From contig JAVJQW010000007.1 in assembly GCA_040218735.1 (NCBI GenBank), positions 160,001-224,000 on the forward strand: a DNA stretch of 64,000 nt, in the 5' to 3' direction. Shown one piece after another: positions 21,667-31,387 of the stretch. The notes beneath the pieces were generated by a model. The model did no database searches. It had not been told where the DNA came from and worked only from the letters and a program-made list of their open reading frames with translations. Position numbers and translations under genes: made by a program. This DNA is from Deltaproteobacteria bacterium (GTDB lineage: Bacteria > Myxococcota > Kuafuiibacteriia > Kuafuiibacteriales > Kuafuiibacteriaceae). Positions within the stretch are counted from its first letter, which is position 1, and each line of letters starts with the position of its first letter.

Positions 21667-23613
21667 TCAGTTCTCCTCACCACGCACGATGGCGAAGTCG
21701 ACGCGACGGTTCTTCGCGCGATTCTCCGGCGTGCTGTTGTCCACCAGCCCACGGTCGAAGCCGTAGCCGCGCGCCGACAGGCGCTCCGGCGCGATGCCCG
21801 CGCCCTTCAGGTGTTCGACGACCGCGAGCGCACGACGCTGCGACAGCAGCATGTTGAAGCCGCGACCACCGACGTTGTCCGTGTGACCCTCGACCCGGAT
21901 GTGCTCGATCTCCGGGTGGTCCTTCATCACGCGCGCGACGTTGTAGAGCAGCCCGAACGAGCGCGGCTGAATCGTCGCCTTCCCGGTGTCGAAGTAGATC
22001 TTCTCCATGATGACGATGCGGTCGGACTCGATGCGGACGTTCTGCTCCTCGGTGCAGCCGAAGTTCTCTTCGCTGCCGGGCTCGTCGGGGCAGTTGTCCT
22101 TGCGGTCGATGACGCTGTCGCCGTCGCGGTCGGAGTCGGGGCAGCCGTTGTTCTCGACCGGGCCGGGCTCGTTGACGCAGCGGTCGCGCGCGTCGACGAC
22201 GCCGTCGCCGTCGTTGTCGAGGTCCGGGCAGCCGTCCTCGTCGTCCGTGCCGTCCACGTCCTCCGCGTCGTCGACGCAGCGGTCGAGGCGGTTCACGATG
22301 CCGTCACCGTCGGTGTCGACGTCCGGGCAGCCGCGGTTGTCCACGTGGCCGGCCTCGTCGACGCAGCGGTCCATCTCGTCCGGCACGCCGTCGCCGTCCT
22401 TGTCGAAGACCGGGCAGCCTTCGTTGTCGATCGAGCCGGCATCCATCGGGCACTTGTCGCGGTTGTCCTCGACGCCGTCCGCGTCGTTGTCCGGATCCGG
22501 GATGCCGTCGTCGTCTTCGAAGCCGTCGTAGTCCTCGGCGAAGTTGGGTGCGCCGTCGACGGCGTCTTCGAAACGGTCGCCGTCGTTGTCGGCCTCGGGG
22601 CAGCCGTCCTTGTCCTCGAAGCCGTCGTAGTCCTCGGCGTTCTGCGGACAGGCGTCGTCGTCGCCTTCGATGCCGTCACCGTCGGGGTCGAGGTTCGCGG
22701 AGGCGACGCGCAGGCCGAGGAGGCCGCGCACGTCGGGCGTGCCGTAGCCGCCGCCGCCGCCGGCGCCGACCGCGGCGAACGCGAGCATCGGCCCGAAGCG
22801 GTAACGCGCGCCGGCCAACGCCTCGACGTAGTTCTGCTGCGTCGACGCCGTCGGGTCCTTGAGGAGCGTCGCGGCGGCCACGCTCGCGTCGATGCCGAGC
22901 GGGACGCTGGTGAGCCCCTCGAGGTCGAAGGATGCGCCGATGGACGCGGTGAGCTCGTCGTCGATGTCGATGCCGAGCCACTCGCGCTGCTCGAGCACCC
23001 GCGCGCCGACGTTGAAGTTGGTGTTGAGGGAACCGAACGCCTTCGACACCGCGACGGTCGGCGCGAACTCGAAGCTCTCGCCGCCGATGTACGCGTCGCG
23101 CGAGATCGTCGGGAGCACGAGCGTCGGGACCAGCGCCACGGCGATGCCCGCTTCGTCCTCACGGACGATGGCGACCTTCGGCGCGATGCGGATGTTGCCG
23201 ACGCCGGCCACTGACAGCGCCGGGATGGAGCCTACGGCGCCCGCCGGGTCGCTGTTGCGACTCTGGTAGGTGACCACCGGGACGATCAGGCCGACCTGGA
23301 GGAGGTCGAAGAGCCCGACGGAGCCCATGAGGCTGCCGCCCATCCGGAAGCCGACGATGTCGCCACCGTGCGTGCGGCCGTCCTCGCTGATGCGGGTGAG
23401 CACCAGCGGGGCGTGGCTGCCGCCGAACCAGAGGCTGGCGTTCCAGTCGAGGTGACCGGCGACGCGGCCACTCTCGACGTTGAGCGTGCCGTTACGATCG
23501 AGGGAGAGCTCGAAGCGCTCGACGGAGAAGGATGCCGGCTCCTGCTGCGCGTAGACGCTTGCGCTCGAGGACAGGGCCAGACTCAGGGCGGTGACTGCGA
23601 CGGTTCGGTTCAT
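21667..23613 (-). CDS. TraB-like outer-membrane protein: beta-barrel + TSP3 repeats + OmpA C-terminal domain
   Basis: Signal peptide from ATG 23613; beta-rich N-terminal half ending 'TPDVRGLLG'; 'DGFEDKDGCP' repeats; OmpA motifs 'IYFDTGKATI', 'VEGHTD', 'LSQRRA', 'NRRVDF'. Confidence 0.85.
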   Translation of the reverse strand: MNRTVAVTALSLALSSSASVYAQQEPASFSVERFELSLDRNGTLNVESGRVAGHLDWNASLWFGGSHAPLVLTRISEDGRTHGGDIVGFRMGGSLMGSVGLFDLLQVGLIVPVVTYQSRNSDPAGAVGSIPALSVAGVGNIRIAPKVAIVREDEAGIAVALVPTLVLPTISRDAYIGGESFEFAPTVAVSKAFGSLNTNFNVGARVLEQREWLGIDIDDELTASIGASFDLEGLTSVPLGIDASVAAATLLKDPTASTQQNYVEALAGARYRFGPMLAFAAVGAGGGGGYGTPDVRGLLGLRVASANLDPDGDGIEGDDDACPQNAEDYDGFEDKDGCPEADNDGDRFEDAVDGAPNFAEDYDGFEDDDGIPDPDNDADGVEDNRDKCPMDAGSIDNEGCPVFDKDGDGVPDEMDRCVDEAGHVDNRGCPDVDTDGDGIVNRLDRCVDDAEDVDGTDDEDGCPDLDNDGDGVVDARDRCVNEPGPVENNGCPDSDRDGDSVIDRKDNCPDEPGSEENFGCTEEQNVRIESDRIVIMEKIYFDTGKATIQPRSFGLLYNVARVMKDHPEIEHIRVEGHTDNVGGRGFNMLLSQRRALAVVEHLKGAGIAPERLSARGYGFDRGLVDNSTPENRAKNRRVDFAIVRGEEN

Positions 23614-23740
23614 CGGTTTCCCTTCGTGACCAAGCGCGCGAATGGCGCGCTTCGCCGACGATCCGAATCGGTTGGGTCCTGGGGCACTCCAGAAGGGGCG
23701 GACCCCGCGTTCCAAATCGAGTCACCCGCCGCGCCCTTTG

Positions 23741-23762
23741 AACTTGACGCATACGTCAAGTT
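23741..23762. promoter_or_regulatory. Inverted repeat AACTTGACG-CATA-CGTCAAGTT, candidate operator 1
   Basis: Perfect 9-bp arms with a 4-nt spacer, in the divergent intergenic region upstream of the MerR-isc operon. Confidence 0.7.
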
Positions 23763-23788
23763 TCTAGAGATTTGAGGGAAGCCGAGAA

Positions 23789-23811
23789 GTTGACGTTTAC
23801 GTCAACGTCAA
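23789..23811. promoter_or_regulatory. Inverted repeat GTTGACG-TTTA-CGTCAAC plus overlapping TTTACG-TCAA-CGTCAA, candidate operator 2
   Basis: Same TTGACG-N4-CGTCAA core as operator 1, ending about 20 bp before the MerR start codon. Confidence 0.7.
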
Positions 23812-23832
23812 GGCACGGAGACGCACCTCGTC

Positions 23833-24384
23833 ATGGACCCCGTCATCAGCATCGATCGCACGAAGGCCACGCTGCGCATCGGCGATCTCGCGAAGCGTGC
23901 CGAGAAGAGCACGCGCGCGGTGCGGCTGTACGAGGACATGGGCCTGCTCGGTCCGGCCGTCCGGACGGAGGGGGGCCACCGGCTGTATACGAACGCCGCC
24001 CTGGTGCGGCTGAGCTGGATCGACAAGCTCCAGCTGCTCGGTTTCTCGCTGCACGAGATCCGCACCTTCCTCGACGACCTGGAGGCCGCCGGTCAGGGCC
24101 CCAAGGCGATGGAGAAGGTCCGCAGCATGTTCGAGGCGAAACACGACGAGGTACGGGCGCAGATCCAGGCGCTCGAGTCGCTGTCGGACGAGCTGACCGA
24201 AGGCATCCAGTACCTGACCACCTGCACGACCTCCTGCGAGCCGCACACGCTGCTGCACGCGTGCAAGGCGTGTGACCACGAACATTCGATCGAACCGCCG
24301 ATGCTCATCACCGGCATTCACGAAGGCGGCCCCAAGGCCGCCGACGAGGGCGGCGAAGCAGCCGCCGAGGGCACCCTGACGTGA
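23833..24384 (+). CDS. MerR-family transcriptional regulator with C-terminal Cx3Cx8Cx2C motif
   Basis: HTH '[35 protein letters not shown]', 'LGFSLHEIR', coiled coil, then '[21 protein letters not shown]'. GTGA overlap with iscS. Confidence 0.9.
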
Positions 24385-25745
24385 AGCTCCCCATCTACAT
24401 GGACTACAACTCCACGACGCCGGTCGATCCGCGCGTCCTCGACGCGATGCGTCCGTTCTACGAGGACCGCTTCGGCAACGCCGCGTCGCGCTCGCACCAG
24501 TTCGGCTGGGTCGCCGAAGAGGCGGTCGACTACGCGCGCGAGCAGGTCGCGAAGCTCGTCGGCGCGACGCCCGCGGAGATCATCTTCACCTCCGGCGCCA
24601 CCGAGTCCGACAACCTCGCGCTCAAGGGCGTCGCGCACATGTACGGCATGACGCGCGCCGACAAGATGACGCTCGACGCGCTCGCGAAGGGTCACAAGGA
24701 CGGCACGATCGAAAACGCCGAGGCCCTCGTCCCGCCGCGCTTCGGCGCGGTCGATCTCGACGAGATCGCCGAGCAGGGCGCCGCGAAGGTCTTCGCGAAC
24801 CGCGGGGACCACATCATCACGCTCACCACCGAGCACAAGGCCATCCTCGACAGCGCGAAGCGCCTCGAGAAGGAAGGCTTCCGCGTCACGTACCTCGGCG
24901 TGAAGCCGAACGGTCTCGTGGATCTCGAGGCGCTCGAGGCGGCGATCGAGGACGACACGATCCTCGTCTCCATCATGCTCGCCAACAACGAGATCGGCGT
25001 GCTGCAGCCGGTGAAGGAGATCGGCGCGCTGTGCCGGTCGAAGAAGGTGCTCTTCCACACCGACGCCGTGCAGGCGGTAGGCAAGGTCCCGGTGAACGTC
25101 GACGACATGAACATCGATCTCATGTCGATGTCCGCGCACAAGATGTACGGGCCGAAGGGCGTGGGCGCGCTGTACGTGCGTCGCCGTCGCCCGCGCGTGC
25201 GCCTCGAAGCGACGATCGACGGCGGCGGCCACGAGCGCGGGATGCGCAGCGGCACGCTCAACGTCGCGGGCATCGTGGGCTTCGGGAAGGCGGCGGAGAT
25301 CTGCAACAAAGAGCTCGAGACCGAGGCCAAGAAGCTCACCGAGCTGCGGAACCACTTCTGGAACAAACTGTCGGGCGAGCTCGACTTCGTGTTCGTCAAC
25401 GGCGACGCCGACCAGCGGCTCCCCGGAAACCTCAACGTGTCGTTTGCGTACGTGGAGGGTGAGGCGCTGATGATGGCGATCAAGGACGTCGCGGTGTCGT
25501 CCGGGTCGGCGTGCACCTCTGCGTCGCTGGAGCCGTCGTACGTGCTGCGTGCGCTCGGCGTCGGCGACGACCTCGCACACAGCTCGATTCGCTTCGGGCT
25601 GGGGCGCTTCACCACCGAGGAGGAGGTCGACTACGTCGCGAACCTCGTCGTCGAGAAGGTGAAGAAGCTCCGCGACATGTCACCCCTCTACGAGATGGCC
25701 CAAGAGGGCATCGATCTCGACAGCATCGAATGGGCGGCGCACTGA
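24381..25745 (+). CDS. iscS: Cysteine desulfurase IscS
   Basis: '[15 protein letters not shown]', '[10 protein letters not shown]', PLP-Lys '[10 protein letters not shown]', catalytic 'SSGSACTS', C-terminal 'IEWAAH'. Confidence 0.97.
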
Positions 25746-25770
25746 AGCGCCGAGATAGGAATCATCCACC

Positions 25771-26175
25771 ATGGCCTACAACGATAAAGTCATCGACCAC
25801 TACGAGAACCCGCGGAACGTGGGGACCCTCGACAAGGAAGACGAGAACGTCGGCACGGGGCTCGTCGGCGCACCCGCGTGCGGCGACGTGATGCGGCTGC
25901 AGATTCGGGTCGGCGACGACGGGACGATCGAAGACGCGAAGTTCAAGACGTTCGGTTGTGGCTCGGCGATCGCCTCCTCCTCGCTCGTGACGGAGTGGGT
26001 GAAGGGCAAGTCGGTCGACTGGGCCGAGTCGCTCAAGAACGACAAGATCGTCGAAGAGCTGTCCCTGCCGCCGGTGAAGGTGCACTGCTCCGTGCTGGCG
26101 GAGGACGCGATCAAGGCGGCGGTGGCCGACTGGCGGAAGAAGAAGACCGCCAAGGCTGCGCCGACCGAGGAGTAA
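25771..26175 (+). CDS. iscU: Fe-S scaffold IscU
   Basis: 'DHYENPRNVG', 'GAPACGDVM', 'FGCGSAIASSS', 'LPPVKVHCS'. Confidence 0.97.
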   Translation: MAYNDKVIDHYENPRNVGTLDKEDENVGTGLVGAPACGDVMRLQIRVGDDGTIEDAKFKTFGCGSAIASSSLVTEWVKGKSVDWAESLKNDKIVEELSLPPVKVHCSVLAEDAIKAAVADWRKKKTAKAAPTEE

Positions 26176-26177
26176 TC

Positions 26178-26549
26178 ATGGCGCTCGACATCCTCCAAGA
26201 GAAGCCGAAGGCGACCGGTACCCTCGAGGTGACCGAGCCCGCCGCGAAGGCGATCGCCAAGTTCCTGAAGACCAACGACGCCCCGGACGGCGCCGGTCTG
26301 CGGGTCGGCGTCCGCGGCGGCGGGTGCAGCGGCCTGTCCTACTACCTCGACGTCGAGACCGCCGCGCGCGACAACGACCACGTGATCGACGCACACGGCG
26401 TGAGCGTCTACGTCGATCCGAAGAGCCTGTTGTTCCTGCAGGGCACGACGCTCGACTACGTCTCCGGGTTGATGGAGTCGGGCTTCAAGTTCGTGAACCC
26501 CAAGGCCGGCAAGGCCTGCGGCTGCGGCGAGAGCTTCTCCCCCGTCTGA
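26178..26549 (+). CDS. iscA: A-type Fe-S carrier IscA
   Basis: 'GVRGGGCSGLSY', 'DPKSL', 'GFKFVNP', 'CGCGESF'. ATG 26178 follows GAGGAG. Confidence 0.93.
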   Translation: MALDILQEKPKATGTLEVTEPAAKAIAKFLKTNDAPDGAGLRVGVRGGGCSGLSYYLDVETAARDNDHVIDAHGVSVYVDPKSLLFLQGTTLDYVSGLMESGFKFVNPKAGKACGCGESFSPV

Positions 26550-26554
26550 TCGCC

Positions 26555-27145
26555 ATGGATTGCTGGTCTTGCGGTGCGGAGCGCGGCGACGCGCTCTTCT
26601 GCACCACGTGCAAAATCCTCCAGCCGGAGTCGAAGAAAGAGGACTGGTTCGCGGCGCTCGGTGTGGAGAAGAAGTTCTCCATCGACACCAAGGCGCTCGC
26701 GAAGGCCTTCCGTACGCGCTCGGTGAAGGTGCATCCGGACCGGTTCGCGCAGAAGTCCGCCGTGGAGCGGCGCCTCGCGGTGCAGCACACCGCGAAGCTC
26801 AACGACGCCTACCGCACCCTCTCGGATCCTCACAAACGCGCCGAGTACCTCATGAAGCTGGAGGGCGTGGAGATCGGCGGCGAAGAGCAGCGCACGAACG
26901 ACCCCGAGTTCCTGATGGCGATGATGGAGCTGCAGGAGGAGGCGGACGGCGCGAAGACCGCGGGCGCGATCGACGCGATGCTGGAGCGGGTCGAAGGCAT
27001 CCGCACCGGTGAGCTGGACAAGGTCCGCGCCTACTTCGACGACGGCGTCGGCGAGCGCGCGCAGATCGTACGTGCGCTCGACGCGCTGAGGTACTACATG
27101 CGCCTCGTCGAACGCCTGACGGCACGACGAGAAGAAGCGAGCTGA
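26555..27145 (+). CDS. hscB: Co-chaperone HscB with N-terminal tetracysteine motif
   Basis: 'CWSC...FCTTC..LQP', J-domain 'HPDRF', 'LNDAYRTLSDPHKRAEY', 'DPEFLMAMME'. Confidence 0.92.
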   Translation: MDCWSCGAERGDALFCTTCKILQPESKKEDWFAALGVEKKFSIDTKALAKAFRTRSVKVHPDRFAQKSAVERRLAVQHTAKLNDAYRTLSDPHKRAEYLMKLEGVEIGGEEQRTNDPEFLMAMMELQEEADGAKTAGAIDAMLERVEGIRTGELDKVRAYFDDGVGERAQIVRALDALRYYMRLVERLTARREEAS

Positions 27146-27151
27146 ACGACC

Positions 27152-29008
27152 ATGGGCCTCCTACAGATCGGCGGTGCGCCGAAAGCCAAATGCGCGGGAC
27201 GCGTCGCGGGGATCGACCTCGGGACGACCTACTCACTCGTCGCCACCGTGCGCGACGGTTCCCCGACCGTGCTCCTCGACGACGAGGACCGCGCCACCTT
27301 CCCCTCCGTGGTGTGGTTCGGCGAGGGCGACGCGCGGGTGGTCGGCCACGACGCTCGCACGAAGGCGGGCGGTGGCGAGGGCACCGTCATCGCGAGCGCC
27401 AAGCGCTTCATGGGGCGCGCGCAGGTCGAGGCGCAGGCGGACGACGAGCTCACGCCCTACGTCTTCTCGAGCGAGGTCGACGGGCCGGTCGTGTACTTCG
27501 ACCTCGCGGACGGACGTCGCGTCACGCCGATCGAAGTGTCGGCGCACGTGCTCGCCGCGCTGAAGGCACGCGCGGAAGAACAGCTCGAAGGCCCCCTCGA
27601 CGGCGTGGTCATCACGGTCCCCGCGTACTTCGACGACGCGCAGCGCCAGGCGACGAAGGACGCCGCGCGCCTCGCGGGCCTCACGGTGCTGCGCCTGCTG
27701 AACGAGCCGACGGCCGCGGCGCTCGCGTACGGCCTCGACCAGAAGAAGGAGGGGATGTTCGCCGTCTTCGACCTCGGCGGCGGCACGTTCGACATCTCGA
27801 TCCTCACGCTCGACGACGGCGTCTTCCAGGTCCTCACGACCGGCGGTGACTCGCGCCTCGGTGGCGACGACTTCGACCGCGCCATCGCGGAGCACTTCCT
27901 CGCGTCGCAGGGCGTCGAGCCCGCGAAGGCCGCCCCCGACGTCGCGGCGCGTGCGCTCGCTGCGGCGCGCACGGCGAAGGAAGCGCTCACGGAGGCCGAC
28001 GAGGCCAGCCTCGAGATCGAGGGCCAGTCCCATACTCTTACGCGCTCGCAGATGGACGAGCTGATCCTCCCCACGCTGCGCCGCACGGAGAAACACATTC
28101 AGCGCGTGCTCGCCGACGTCGGGCTGTCGGGAGACGAGCTCGACGGCGTGGTGCTCGTCGGTGGCTCCACGCGGGTGCCGGCGGTGCGTACGTACGTCGA
28201 GAAGCTGTTCGGCCAGAAGCCGCTCGCCGACCTCGATCCGGATCGCGTCGTCGCGCTCGGCGCGGCGGTGCAAGCGGACTTGCTCGGCGGCGAGGGTCCG
28301 CGCGACGACGTGCTGCTGCTCGACGTCCTCCCGCTCTCGCTGGGCGTGGAGACGATGGGCGGCGTGGTCGAGAAGATCCTCCACCGAAACCAGACCATCC
28401 CCGCCACCGCGCAGCAGGAGTTCACGACCTACGCGGACGGGCAGACCGGGATGGACTTCCACGTCGTGCAGGGCGAGCGCGAGCTCGTCAGCGACGGCCG
28501 TTCGCTCGCGCGCTTCAAGCTGTCCGGAATCCCGCCCATGGGCGCGGGGATGGGCCGGGTGCTGGTGACGTTCGAGGTCGACGCGGACGGCATCCTGCAC
28601 GTCTCGGCGGAGGAGCAGACCACGAAGAAGCGCGCCAGCGTCCAGGTGAAGCCGTCCTACGGGCTCGACGACGAGACCGTGGAGCGGATGATCATGGAGT
28701 CCTTCCAGTTCGCGCAGGCGGACGTCGACGAGCGCCTCTTCGTCGAGCACCGCGTCGAGGCGGAGCGAATCATCGCCGCGCTCACGCGCGCGATGGAGGA
28801 GGACGGCGCGCTCCTCGCCGACGACGAGCGCGAGGCCCTGAACGCCGGCATCGCGTCCATCGAGGCTGCGGTGGAGGCCAAGAACGCGGGCCTGGTCCGC
28901 GAGCGCGTCGACCAGCTCGACGCCCTCTCCGCGGACTTCGCCGTCCGCCGCATGAACCAGTCGATCGGCGACGCCCTCCGAGGCCAGCAGGCCGAGGGGT
29001 TGGGCTGA
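27152..29008 (+). CDS. hscA: Fe-S chaperone HscA (Hsp70 family)
   Basis: N-terminal 'LLQI', 'GIDLGTT', '[18 protein letters not shown]', '[12 protein letters not shown]', 'VKPSYGL', 'FA.RRMN.SI'; operon position after hscB. Confidence 0.93.
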
Positions 29009-29134
29009 GGCCTGTTCGACCCGTCTTCCCCCCGTTCTGCGCCATCTCGCGTCGATCCCCTCAACGTTTCCGAGATTCGGTCGAAGGATACGGCAAGCCC
29101 CCTTCACCTGGGTCGGAGGGCCGGGAGAACTGCC

Positions 29135-31387
29135 GTGTCGCAAACGCCACTTCCGCGCGCGATGACGCCGCCGCCTGCACCGCAGGCGACGAGGCGCGGA
29201 CGTGTGCCGTGGGATCCGGTGGCGCGGCCGCCCGCGGCGCCGCCGCCGCCTCGCGCCGCGGCTCGCCCGGTCGGGACCTCCGACGTGGCGCCCGAAGCCG
29301 TGGTGTCCCCGGTCGGCAAGACGTACGGGCGCTACCGAATCCTCTCCGTCATCCAGCGCGGCGGGATGGGCGAGATCTTCCTCGGCGAGTTCATCGACCC
29401 GGTTCAGTACGGGCAGCAGGTCGTCCTGAAGCGGTTGCTCGCCGACTTCGACGAGGACGAGCGCTACCGCTCGATGTTCGGCGCCGAGGCGCGGGTGATG
29501 CTCCGGATGGACCACCCGAACATCGTGAAGGTCTTCGACGCGCCGATGATCGAAGGCAAGCCGTGCCTGGCGATGGAGTTCGTCCACGGCCGCAACGTCA
29601 ACCAGATCCTCAAGCGATGCCGAAAGAGCGGCCGGCTGATGCCGCCGCAGATCGCGGTGTCGATCCTCCTGCACGTCCTCGAAGGGCTGCAGTACGCACA
29701 CACGATGGTGCTCGAGGACGGGTGTCCGCTGGACCTCGTCCACCGCGACGTCACGCCCGGCAACATCCTCGTCTCGTTCGACGGGGCGGTGAAGATGACG
29801 GACTTCGGGATCGCGAAGTCCAAGATGTCGGTGGTGTCGACGACGGTCGGCGTCGTGAAGGGCACGACGCGGTACCTCTCGCCCGAGCAGATACGCAGCG
29901 AGAACGTCGACGGTCGCTCCGACATCTTCTCCGCCGCCACCGTCCTGACCGAGATGCTCACGGGCGCGCCGCTCTTCGACCGCGGTGCGGTGCCCCCTAC
30001 GCTGTTTGCGATCATCAAGGGGCAGCGCAAACCCATCGCGGACCTGCTGCCGTTCCCCGCGCCGCGCCTCGCCGCCGCGCTGGAGAAGGCGCTGTCCGTC
30101 TCCCCGCGCGACCGATTCACGAGCGCCGAAGCGTTCGCCGCGGCGCTCCGCGACGCGCAGCGTGAGCTCGGCCGTCCGCTCGCGCCGGGGGCGCTCGGGC
30201 GCTTCGTGCAGGAGCTCTTCGATGACCGTCCGGTGCCGGTGAAGAAGCCGAAGCCGGTGGCGGGCCCCGAGAACCCCTCGCTCGACCTGACCTACCTGTT
30301 CGAGGTCAACGAGGGCAGCGGCTCCCACGCCGTGCGCGAGATTTCGGCGCTCGACACGCCGGACATCGAAGCGATCAGCGGCGACCTCGCGGGGGGCACC
30401 CCGCTGTCGGCCGAGCAGTTCGAGGCGCCGCGCGCCGCGCCGCCGCCTCCGCCGCCCGTGAGTCAGCGGATGGAGCTCCCGGAGTTCCCGGACGTCGAGA
30501 CCTCGCCGTCGCGGTCGGTCCCGATCTCCGAGGTCGGCGTCGAGCGCAGCGAGGCCCTGCGGCCGCTCGATCTGATGGACGAGGTCGCGCGCGAGCTGGA
30601 CATCGACGCCCCGCCGCCGCCGCGCTTCCCGCCGGCGCGTTCGCCGAGCAACGGGACGCCCGCGCGGCTGCGCGCGCCATATCGCCCAACGCCTTCGCGG
30701 CTCCCCGCCGACCTGTTCGTCGAGCCGTCCACGCAGGACGTCGAGGCGGAAGCCGACGCGTTTTCGAGCAACCGCGCGCTCATCCTCGGTGCGCTCGAGG
30801 AGGCCGTCTCTCCTCAGGTCGTCGAGGACGACGCCGCGACTTCGGCCTCGTCCGAGGTCGCTGCGCGGCCGGCGCGGTCCACGAAGACGCGCGTGCTCTT
30901 CCTCGCGGGGATCCTGTGCGGCGCGCTCCTCGTGTGGGGCATGACGGCGCTCGTCGCCGGGATGTTCGAAGAGGCGCCCGAGGCGCCGAAGCGCGCGGAG
31001 CGAACGACGCGGTCCGTGGCTCCCGCCAGCGAAGCGCCTTCGGCGCAGGACCCCGCGGCGCCCGACTCCGCGACGGCGCCTGTCCCCGCGGCGGCGCCCA
31101 ACGCGGTGGAGGCGCCCATCGTCAGCACGTCGCCCGAGGCTGCGTCAGGCGCCGAGCGAGGCCATATCGATCTGCTCCGGCCGCGCGGCGCGCGGGTCTT
31201 CATCGACGGTGTTCGCCTGAGCAAGCGGGTGCCGATCCGCGACTTCCGCGTGGAGCCGGGACATCGGAAGATCTTGGTGACGAAGGGCCGGTACCGGCGC
31301 TGGCTGGAGATCGACGTCGAGGCGGGTCAGTACTTCGACCTCACCGACGGCGAGATCGTCGAAGTCGACGCGACGCCTGATCAGTAG
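29135..31387 (+). CDS. Membrane Ser/Thr protein kinase with Pro-rich linker, TM and PEGA-like C-terminus
   Basis: 'GGMGEIF', 'VVLKR', 'HRDVTPGNIL', 'DFGIAK', 'YLSPEQ', 'RSDIFS'; TM 'VLFLAGILCGALLVWGM'; 'GARVFIDG...VEPGHRKI'. Confidence 0.92.
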   Translation: MSQTPLPRAMTPPPAPQATRRGRVPWDPVARPPAAPPPPRAAARPVGTSDVAPEAVVSPVGKTYGRYRILSVIQRGGMGEIFLGEFIDPVQYGQQVVLKRLLADFDEDERYRSMFGAEARVMLRMDHPNIVKVFDAPMIEGKPCLAMEFVHGRNVNQILKRCRKSGRLMPPQIAVSILLHVLEGLQYAHTMVLEDGCPLDLVHRDVTPGNILVSFDGAVKMTDFGIAKSKMSVVSTTVGVVKGTTRYLSPEQIRSENVDGRSDIFSAATVLTEMLTGAPLFDRGAVPPTLFAIIKGQRKPIADLLPFPAPRLAAALEKALSVSPRDRFTSAEAFAAALRDAQRELGRPLAPGALGRFVQELFDDRPVPVKKPKPVAGPENPSLDLTYLFEVNEGSGSHAVREISALDTPDIEAISGDLAGGTPLSAEQFEAPRAAPPPPPPVSQRMELPEFPDVETSPSRSVPISEVGVERSEALRPLDLMDEVARELDIDAPPPPRFPPARSPSNGTPARLRAPYRPTPSRLPADLFVEPSTQDVEAEADAFSSNRALILGALEEAVSPQVVEDDAATSASSEVAARPARSTKTRVLFLAGILCGALLVWGMTALVAGMFEEAPEAPKRAERTTRSVAPASEAPSAQDPAAPDSATAPVPAAAPNAVEAPIVSTSPEAASGAERGHIDLLRPRGARVFIDGVRLSKRVPIRDFRVEPGHRKILVTKGRYRRWLEIDVEAGQYFDLTDGEIVEVDATPDQ

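Follow-up and report, generated by a model that had tools for sequence, protein, structure and literature searches.

The isc operon at positions 23833-29008 of the DNA analysed here (the window: 64,000 nucleotides of contig JAVJQW010000007.1, assembly GCA_040218735.1, from a Deltaproteobacteria bacterium placed by GTDB in the Myxococcota) is headed by a gene for a MerR-family protein with four cysteines at the end of its dimerisation helix, whereas proteobacterial isc operons are normally headed by the Rrf2-family IscR. The reading that we favour, to which we assign a probability of about 0.5, is that this protein is an autoregulator of iron-sulfur (Fe-S) biogenesis that senses through a Cys4(His) site, most likely by means of an Fe-S cluster. 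That Fe-S biogenesis is the business of the family is argued most strongly by gene linkage: relatives of the regulator stand in front of two non-homologous machineries, ISC and SUF.

The operon and the linkage of its first gene across relatives

The regulator gene is an open reading frame (ORF) that begins at the first start codon past an in-frame stop and is the first gene of merR-iscS-iscU-iscA-hscB-hscA. Its junction with iscS reads ctgacGTGAagc, in which the TGA stop at 24382-24384 overlaps the GTG start at 24381-24383, while the gaps between the remaining genes are 2-25 nucleotides (nt). Two features had been noticed in a first-pass annotation of this DNA: the GTGA overlap at 24381-24384 is there in the sequence, and the MerR-type helix-turn-helix (HTH) gene at the head of an isc operon is borne out by Pfam and NCBIfam on this gene and those following it. 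The identities of IscS, IscU, HscB and HscA are given by scores exceeding curated NCBIfam cut-offs.

23833-24384, + strand: MerR-family regulator gene, 183 amino acids (aa) (ORF list, Pfam, NCBIfam, AlphaFold2 model)
24381-25745, + strand: iscS, 454 aa (NCBIfam IscS 698.7 bits, cut-off 548; Pfam Aminotran_5)
25771-26175, + strand: iscU (NCBIfam IscU 224.7, cut-off 192.4; Pfam NifU_N)
26178-26549, + strand: iscA (Pfam Fe-S_biosyn, E 4.7e-19)
26555-27145, + strand: hscB (NCBIfam HscB 75.9, cut-off 46.75; Pfam DnaJ and HSCB_C)
27152-29008, + strand: hscA (NCBIfam HscA 791.7, cut-off 708.55; Pfam HSP70)

Gene neighbourhoods were then compared in one genome per species, a scan that gave 80 loci, 74 of them with a four-Cys regulator and 6 with ordinary MerRs. 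Directly downstream of the four-Cys regulator lies, in these 74 loci:

iscS: 60 loci
a suf operon: 4 loci (L028, L040, L047 and L059)
a conserved extracytoplasmic function (ECF) sigma factor gene, the products 69-86% identical among themselves: 7 loci
a cysteine desulfurase gene with a nitrilase-family gene: 1 locus (L066)
a contig end: 1 locus
none of these: 1 locus

The search for a MerR gene followed by iscS thus found the arrangement of the window in most loci, and an efflux or detoxification gene was directly downstream in none of the 74. The iscU, iscA, hscB and hscA genes are also present in 50 of the 60 isc loci, the remaining 10 being cut by contig ends, and in L001, L002 and L023 the iscS gene overlaps the stop of the regulator as it does in the window. 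From this comparison of loci, the adjacency of MerR and isc genes is a conserved trait of the family and not a matter of chance. That the regulator only happens to lie beside isc, with its targets elsewhere, is highly improbable, considering the stop/start overlap, the linkage in 60 loci and an operator which, as described below, is found in this genome only at this promoter.

The suf-linked loci are of two kinds. In L028 and L040 the regulator is followed by sufA-sufC-sufB-sufD-sufS-sufU, and L047 and L059 form a separate clade with sufB directly behind the regulator. The lineage of L040 has the protein in 36 of its 41 genomes; when 25 of these loci were fetched, sufA and sufC or sufB followed the regulator in 23, and the other 2 were truncated by contig ends. 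A quick maximum-likelihood tree recovered the suf clade of L040 as monophyletic (Shimodaira-Hasegawa-like approximate likelihood ratio test, 99) and nested among isc-linked branches. In the same tree the ECF-linked proteins (L064, L065, L067, L070, L071, L073 and L074) formed a separate clade; deeper nodes were weak, and long branches were flagged. These proteins, a sister clade of the regulator, carry the motif Cx2Cx8-9(C)Cx2C, and a palindrome of the same type as that of the isc loci lies just upstream of their genes. Several of the ECF-linked loci also have upstream a deoxynucleoside-kinase-like gene with no NCBIfam match. In L066 (6037-8570), a low-GC (44%) relative, the desulfurase scores under the IscS, NifS and DndA cut-offs and is followed by a nitrilase-family amidase.

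The genome to which the window belongs (11.6 Mb, 96.5% complete) has just one IscU, together with a second cysteine desulfurase (38% identity) and a paralogue of IscA. No SufB was found in it, and the genomes of L002 and L064 gave none either; by gene content, ISC appears to be the one complete Fe-S assembly system of the window genome. Its two good Rrf2 proteins score far under the IscR, NsrR and RirA cut-offs, the nearest model being that of the redox sensor HypR, and neither this genome nor any of 20 genomes from its family yielded an IscR equivalog above the cut-off. The first-pass annotation had proposed that IscR was replaced convergently; as a genomic picture this is fair, the Rrf2 and MerR folds being unrelated. 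A 201-genome sample of the phylum, scanned with the family profile (E up to 1e-20), gave matches in 62 genomes, among them 16 of 18 others of the family of the window genome, 10 of 10 of another family and 0 of 60 of the largest one; the weaker matches probably include paralogues of the ECF type. DNA near-identical to 23500-25500 occurs in metagenomes of sponges, bioflocs, aquaculture and biofilms, with at least half of the sampled words in 7 runs, and one sponge-metagenome contig of 8067 nt spans the whole of this segment with 10 differences.

Some features of the operon and of its surroundings can be added. The upstream neighbour (21670-23613, - strand) is divergent, its product being an OmpA-family protein that carries thrombospondin type 3 repeats, and the downstream neighbour of hscA is a Ser/Thr kinase gene. 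Neither a ferredoxin gene nor a tRNA was found behind hscA (29009-29134), a difference from the isc operon of Myxococcus xanthus; the sole ISC-type ferredoxin-like match in the genome is on another contig (C59:312679-312987) and reaches 91 bits against a cut-off of 132.1. Relative to IscS models, the IscS of the window has an insertion of ~46 aa past residue ~75 (~76-121), which splits the NCBIfam match in two, residues 122-454 corresponding to model positions 76-406. The IscS match extends over ~1356-1365 nt in L002-L017 and over ~1209-1218 nt in L018-L063, so that the insertion marks the close relatives of the window. HscB has at its N-terminus the CxxC...CxxC arrangement (MDCWSCG...CTTC) of the tetracysteine form of this co-chaperone, although its match to Pfam HscB_4_cys (E 0.0018) is under the cut-off of that family.

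The regulator and its cysteine module

The regulator matched the Pfam families MerR_1 (8.5e-15), MerR-DNA-bind (1.3e-13) and MerR (1.3e-11), and gave no match to the Rrf2-type domain (PF02082) in Pfam or NCBIfam. An AlphaFold2 model built with 105 homologues had a mean predicted local distance difference test score (pLDDT) of 83.8, and consisted of a winged HTH domain, a helix at residues 90-134, the Cys loop and a short helix at residues 157-164. The features of the protein are the following:

23875-24078, + strand: winged HTH DNA-binding domain, residues 15-82 (Pfam MerR_1; pLDDT 95-98)
24097-24111, + strand: G-P-x-A-M, residues 89-93, at the N-terminal end of the dimerisation helix (conservation)
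24100-24234, + strand: long dimerisation helix, residues 90-134 (DSSP on the AlphaFold2 model)
24223-24285, + strand: putative sensor loop C131-x3-C135-x8-C144-x2-C147-x3-H151 (conservation; pLDDT 64-69)

The protein thus has the N-terminal winged HTH, the long alpha5 coiled-coil helix and the C-terminal effector region, here of ~50 aa, by which MerR-family members are recognised. Foldseek placed the model next to CadR, HiNmlR, SoxR (2zhg) and CueR with a probability of 1.00, and the family profile matched the solved chains of MerR (4ua1), PbrR (5gpe), CadR and CueR at E values from 2e-19 to 1e-12, with alignments that end at about residues 124-128, just short of the first Cys. All the NCBIfam equivalog scores remained below the respective cut-offs: 71.6 against 143 for ZntR, 68.8 against 147.4 for CueR, 50.4 against 116.9 for SoxR (TIGR01950), and 68.2 against 167.95, 61.7 against 151.45 and 56.0 against 150.85 for further metal-sensor equivalogs of the CueR/ZntR/CadR-PbrR/MerR groups. 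On these domain and profile scores the regulator is a member of the MerR family, outside the SoxR, CueR, ZntR, CadR and MerR equivalog groups and unrelated to Rrf2. A heavy-metal efflux regulator, as suggested by the name 'copper efflux regulator' in some sources, was considered and ruled out by the gene context and by the NCBIfam cut-offs.

A direct metal-ion sensor is a different matter: the protein could hold Fe(II) in a rubredoxin-like site, or respond to thiophilic metals (Cu, Cd, Zn or Co) that damage clusters, after which the assembly genes would be induced. Its nearest solved and curated relatives (the four sets of chains named above and the ZntR, CueR and CadR models) sense metals, the loop sits at the position of their metal-binding loop, Cu(I) targets the Fe-S biogenesis machinery according to the sections seen of PMC11672702, and the name given to some homologues goes in the same direction. 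However, this explanation is unlikely, in view of the sub-cut-off equivalog scores and of the 74 four-Cys loci without efflux or detoxification genes directly downstream; moreover, in the profile alignment, the Cys at the start of alpha5 in 4ua1 corresponds to Pro90 of the family and not to a Cys.

The four Cys of the window protein are C131, C135, C144 and C147 (codons 24223-24225 to 24271-24273), followed by D148-H149-E150-H151. A word-seeded search gave 111 homologues, of which 105 have the motif, with Cys spacings of 2/8/2 in 97, 3/8/2 in 6 (the window included) and 3/7/2 in 2; the motif is lacking in 6, which are unrelated MerRs or else fragmentary or frame-broken sequences. Conservation was measured on 98 family proteins from the genome loci, namely 61 isc-linked, 25 suf-linked, 10 paralogues and 2 which were afterwards found to be suf-linked. 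All four Cys are invariant (98/98), a conservation in orthologs on which the first-pass annotation had made its proposal depend. Its motif, Cx3Cx8Cx2C followed by DHEH, is exact for the window and can be refined for the family, in which the norm for the first pair is Cx2C and conservation within DHEH is limited to the last His. This His, three residues past the last Cys (H151), is found in 50/61 isc-linked and 25/25 suf-linked proteins, and P90 and M93 of G-P-x-A-M are each found in 60/61 and 25/25, respectively. In a dimer, G-P-x-A-M and the Cys loop would face each other across the two subunits.

The module was also looked for outside this subfamily. Pfam searches with the C-terminal 50-65 residues of the window protein and of L040 (E up to 10) found no family that covers it, and the zf-FLZ match of the C-terminal piece of a relative, L020, was at noise level (E 0.17). 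Among the profile-matched chains, no solved structure covers the module. When a 50-position profile was made from the module and run against 1.84 billion representatives (E up to 0.001), it matched 214; 10 longer ones were scanned, and 6 were MerR proteins, 1 had no family and 3 were chimera-like, with a truncated enzyme domain fused to the module, being probably chimeras of gene calling or assembly. The top match, P0112 (852 aa, 17 stretches), resembles a Cys-repeat false positive. From these searches the Cys module seems to be confined to this MerR subfamily. For residues 122-170, the best features of the Protein Atlas reached 0.83-0.87, below the bar of 0.9, and one cluster was automatically named SoxR, which we take as a lead only.

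Two further explanations concern what the four Cys do. They could form a thiol/zinc redox switch, of which Hsp33 and RsrA are examples: a structural Zn(II) held by the four Cys would be released by oxidants, and Fe-S biogenesis would be raised without any cluster in the sensor. The motif consists of two CxxC pairs, which is the most frequent signature of Zn(Cys)4 sites, the same motif heads the ECF sigma factor genes of 7 paralogues, a typical stress-response setting, and the noise-level match of L020 is to a zinc-finger family and is the only Pfam match of that C-terminal piece. Alone, however, such a switch leaves the tight tracking of two unrelated Fe-S machineries unexplained, and the model puts the CxxC pairs at the ends of helices and not in beta-hairpin knuckles, although with a pLDDT of only 64-69; we regard it as the least unlikely of the alternatives, of low probability nonetheless. 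The site could also be purely structural (zinc or disulfides), with the signal coming instead from, for instance, a partner protein or a small molecule, or with the protein acting as a constitutive repressor or activator. The low pLDDT of the loop would fit, and sensor-less members of the MerR family exist, HiNmlR being among the top fold matches and MliR being described as such in the part seen of PMC9478572. On the other hand, four invariant Cys together with G-P-x-A-M at the position of the partner subunit are the pattern of a working sensor, as outlined in the sections seen of PMC11672702, and a purely structural role appears quite improbable.

Operators, promoters and the proposed mechanism

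Upstream of the regulator gene, two palindromes and a possible -10 element were found:

23741-23762, no strand: putative operator 1, a perfect 9+4+9 palindrome AACTTGACG-CATA-CGTCAAGTT (12/12 match to the consensus)
23787-23812, no strand: putative operator 2, GTTGACG-TTTA-CGTCAAC (23789-23806) with the overlapping register GTTTACG-TCAA-CGTCAAG (10/12 and 11/12 matches)
23765-23770, + strand: TAGAGA, a possible -10 element, 15 nt past TTGACG (by eye, inferred only)

The left arm of operator 1 holds a -35-like TTGACG (23744-23749), and this operator is ~130 bp from the start of the divergent OmpA-family gene. The two operators are 46 bp apart, which is also the spacing of a 20-nt direct repeat (23740-23759 and 23786-23805), and operator 2 ends ~21 nt before the start codon. 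The closest relatives, L001, L003, L007 and L009, likewise have a second proximal site in this position, and hexamers beginning with TA were seen by eye at the position of TAGAGA in L001, L004, L007 and L016. Exact copies of TTGACG-N4-CGTCAA number two in the whole 11.6-Mb genome, and this promoter holds both. A genome scan with the 22-mer gave 0 mismatches here and 13 other sites with at least 4 mismatches, 11 of which are inside ORFs; one 4-mismatch site (C52:270063) lies 18 nt before an ORF. No further convincing operator emerged from these genome-wide scans. Two metagenome strains vary at 23751-23752, two positions of the N4 centre, which is not conserved, while their arms are unchanged.

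Across the family, the consensus upstream of the regulator gene is CYTNACG-N4-CGTNARG. At least 11 of its 12 positions are matched in 47/61 isc-linked upstream regions, with 66 sites in 14.6 kb as compared to 5 in the remaining 624 kb of these loci, and full 12/12 matches number 25 upstream and 0 elsewhere; since the consensus was built from these same upstream regions, the enrichment is a test of specificity and not of discovery. At least 10/12 positions are matched in all the 24 suf-linked loci with enough upstream sequence.

The position of the dyad relative to the promoter was also compared. In the suf-linked clade (L085-L109) it fills an 18-nt spacer, T[AG]GA[AC][CT]-N18-TA[ACT]GAT, in 24/24 loci, and this pattern, which was written post hoc from sequences already seen, is absent elsewhere in those loci. 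The layout is the classical MerR arrangement and offers a clean candidate for a MerR-type promoter; the spacer of 18 nt compares with the canonical 19-20 bp given for MerR in the sections seen of PMC11672702. In the isc-linked loci, TTGACN-N16-18-TA matched in 28/61; of these, in overlapping categories, the operator is 1-20 nt downstream of the -10-like element in 21, directly adjoins the -35 in 9 and falls within the spacer in 5, a layout that looks like occlusion by a repressor. As for transcripts, a 330-nt contig from an RNA library covers 23869-24194 at ~94% identity, an identity that points to a relative as its source, and no contig of the metagenome and RNA runs bridges the regulator-iscS junction or makes a transcript start visible.

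We infer from the operators that the regulator binds DNA and controls its own operon. MerR proteins are homodimers, and the protein would be a homodimeric MerR-fold factor dedicated to the operon that it heads, which we consider very probable from gene order and operators; it would bind both palindromes (23741-23762 and 23787-23812), thereby autoregulating the operon. The Cys4(+His) loop at the end of the dimerisation helix would read the signal, and that the signal is read through this Cys site is likely. CueR, ZntR, MerR and SoxR hold their metal, or a [2Fe-2S] cluster, at the same end of the helix. The ligand would be an Fe-S cluster supplied by the controlled machinery, the occupancy of the site reporting supply versus demand. 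An Fe-S cluster is judged the most likely ligand because the family tracks Fe-S assembly genes of either machinery and because the scaffold of SoxR holds a cluster; we put it at even odds or a shade better. In its holo form the protein would hold expression of the operon down, and once the cluster is lost, through Fe-S demand, iron limitation or oxidants, expression would rise. As to the sign of regulation we favour repression by the holo form, owing to the analogy with IscR and RisR and to the downstream position of the operators.

Several observations weigh against an Fe-S-sensing autoregulator. The 7 paralogues linked to ECF sigma factors share the four Cys and the operator type, which means that the module is not exclusive to Fe-S operons and that it may sense a general signal, for instance oxidants. 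The His is absent from 11/61 isc-linked proteins, and paired CxxC motifs are typical of zinc sites too. The regulator is missing in 2 of the 18 other genomes of the family of the window genome, and one of these, G083, has an isc-like cluster (L111, C38:24747-29039) without the regulator gene. An Rrf2 protein of the window genome (C66:11827-12216, - strand), with the motif Cx3Cx5C and 57.6 bits on the HypR model against a cut-off of 180, could be, by its motif, a co-regulator or a second redox or Fe-S regulator. As regards repression versus activation, the operator lies in the spacer in suf-linked loci and mostly downstream of a -10-like element in those isc-linked loci where a promoter can be recognised, and a scan for consensus sigma-70 promoters over 23600-29400 returned 0 promoter-like sites. 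The cluster of G083 is directly behind a fabH-like gene, and includes an iscS with a similar insertion, a divergent IscU-like gene and iscA.

Comparison with known systems

Fe-S biogenesis control is understood almost wholly through Rrf2 proteins (IscR and RisR) and SufR. To the IscR of Escherichia coli and other Proteobacteria the window protein is similar in being encoded by the first gene of isc and in being a presumed autoregulator through a Cys-rich site, Cys3His in IscR (Cys3 with His, Asp or Glu among IscR/Rrf2 regulators). The resemblance is a functional analogy only, as the window protein has a MerR winged HTH and coiled coil, the motif Cx2-3Cx8Cx2Cx3H and the operator CYTNACG-N4-CGTNARG. 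Rrf2 regulators are also found with both ISC and SUF clusters, according to the part seen of PMC9973013, as this family is.

RisR, an Rrf2 protein of Myxococcus xanthus, is a regulator of Fe-S biogenesis from the same broad bacterial group. In the sections seen of PMC9973013, its holo form represses both isc and suf, it is encoded upstream of suf, and the isc locus is without a regulator gene; the same sections describe SUF as the sole system in most Deltaproteobacteria and M. xanthus as the only organism worked out, beyond the Gammaproteobacteria, among bacteria with two machineries. The setting of the window is different, with a MerR-type gene at isc and a genome without SufB, and this MerR was matched in 0/60 genomes of the largest family sampled from the phylum.

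Among MerR proteins, SoxR has the same fold and four Cys directly behind the dimerisation helix, and provides the precedent for a MerR scaffold that carries an Fe-S cluster. Its motif, CX2CXCX5C, is however absent from the window protein, and the profile alignment to 2zhg stops short of the Cys, at residue 126; SoxR, in addition, controls soxS or efflux genes and not Fe-S assembly. CueR, ZntR, CadR, PbrR and MerR are the closest solved relatives, with the same DNA-binding and dimerisation architecture, and the operator of the suf-linked clade lies in the -35/-10 spacer as theirs do, but the window protein differs in its sensor loop and has no metal efflux genes in its vicinity. MliR, as presented in 2022, was the first regulator of the MerR family to be connected with iron homeostasis, and Fe-S assembly genes were among those affected in its mutant; in the description seen in PMC9478572 it has no effector domain and no Cys. 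It acts globally and lies outside isc or suf operons, unlike the window protein with its Cys region of ~50 aa. No description of a MerR-type regulator of isc or suf was found in the open-access full-text literature, and the MerR sections of a 2024 review on metal sensing (PMC11672702), as far as they were seen, do not include a MerR-type regulator of Fe-S biogenesis.

Tentatively, and at odds somewhat short of even, the protein would represent a previously undescribed class of Fe-S homeostasis sensor, in which a MerR-fold protein ligates a cluster through a Cys4(His) module of its own subfamily and feeds back on the ISC or SUF system of its host. If so, it would add to SoxR a second branch of MerR-family proteins with an Fe-S cluster, controlling ISC in several lineages labelled as Myxococcota and SUF in at least two others, with a sister branch that couples the sensor to an ECF sigma factor. 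The feedback logic would then have been reinvented, in dozens of mostly uncultured lineages, on a scaffold that normally activates by DNA distortion. The compact Cys4(His) module would then lend itself to biochemical characterisation, and the combination of a unique operator and a single operon would make a clean system to see how a MerR protein can report the supply of a cofactor; for annotation, the family would gain a better name than 'copper efflux regulator'.

The suf-linked clade has its own analogue. SufR of cyanobacteria and actinobacteria is a cluster-sensing suf repressor encoded next to suf; it belongs to another family, no model of which was matched by the window protein (E up to 0.01). 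Beside SufR and the Rrf2 regulators IscR and RisR, the MerR-type protein described here would be a third evolutionary solution to the control of Fe-S biogenesis.

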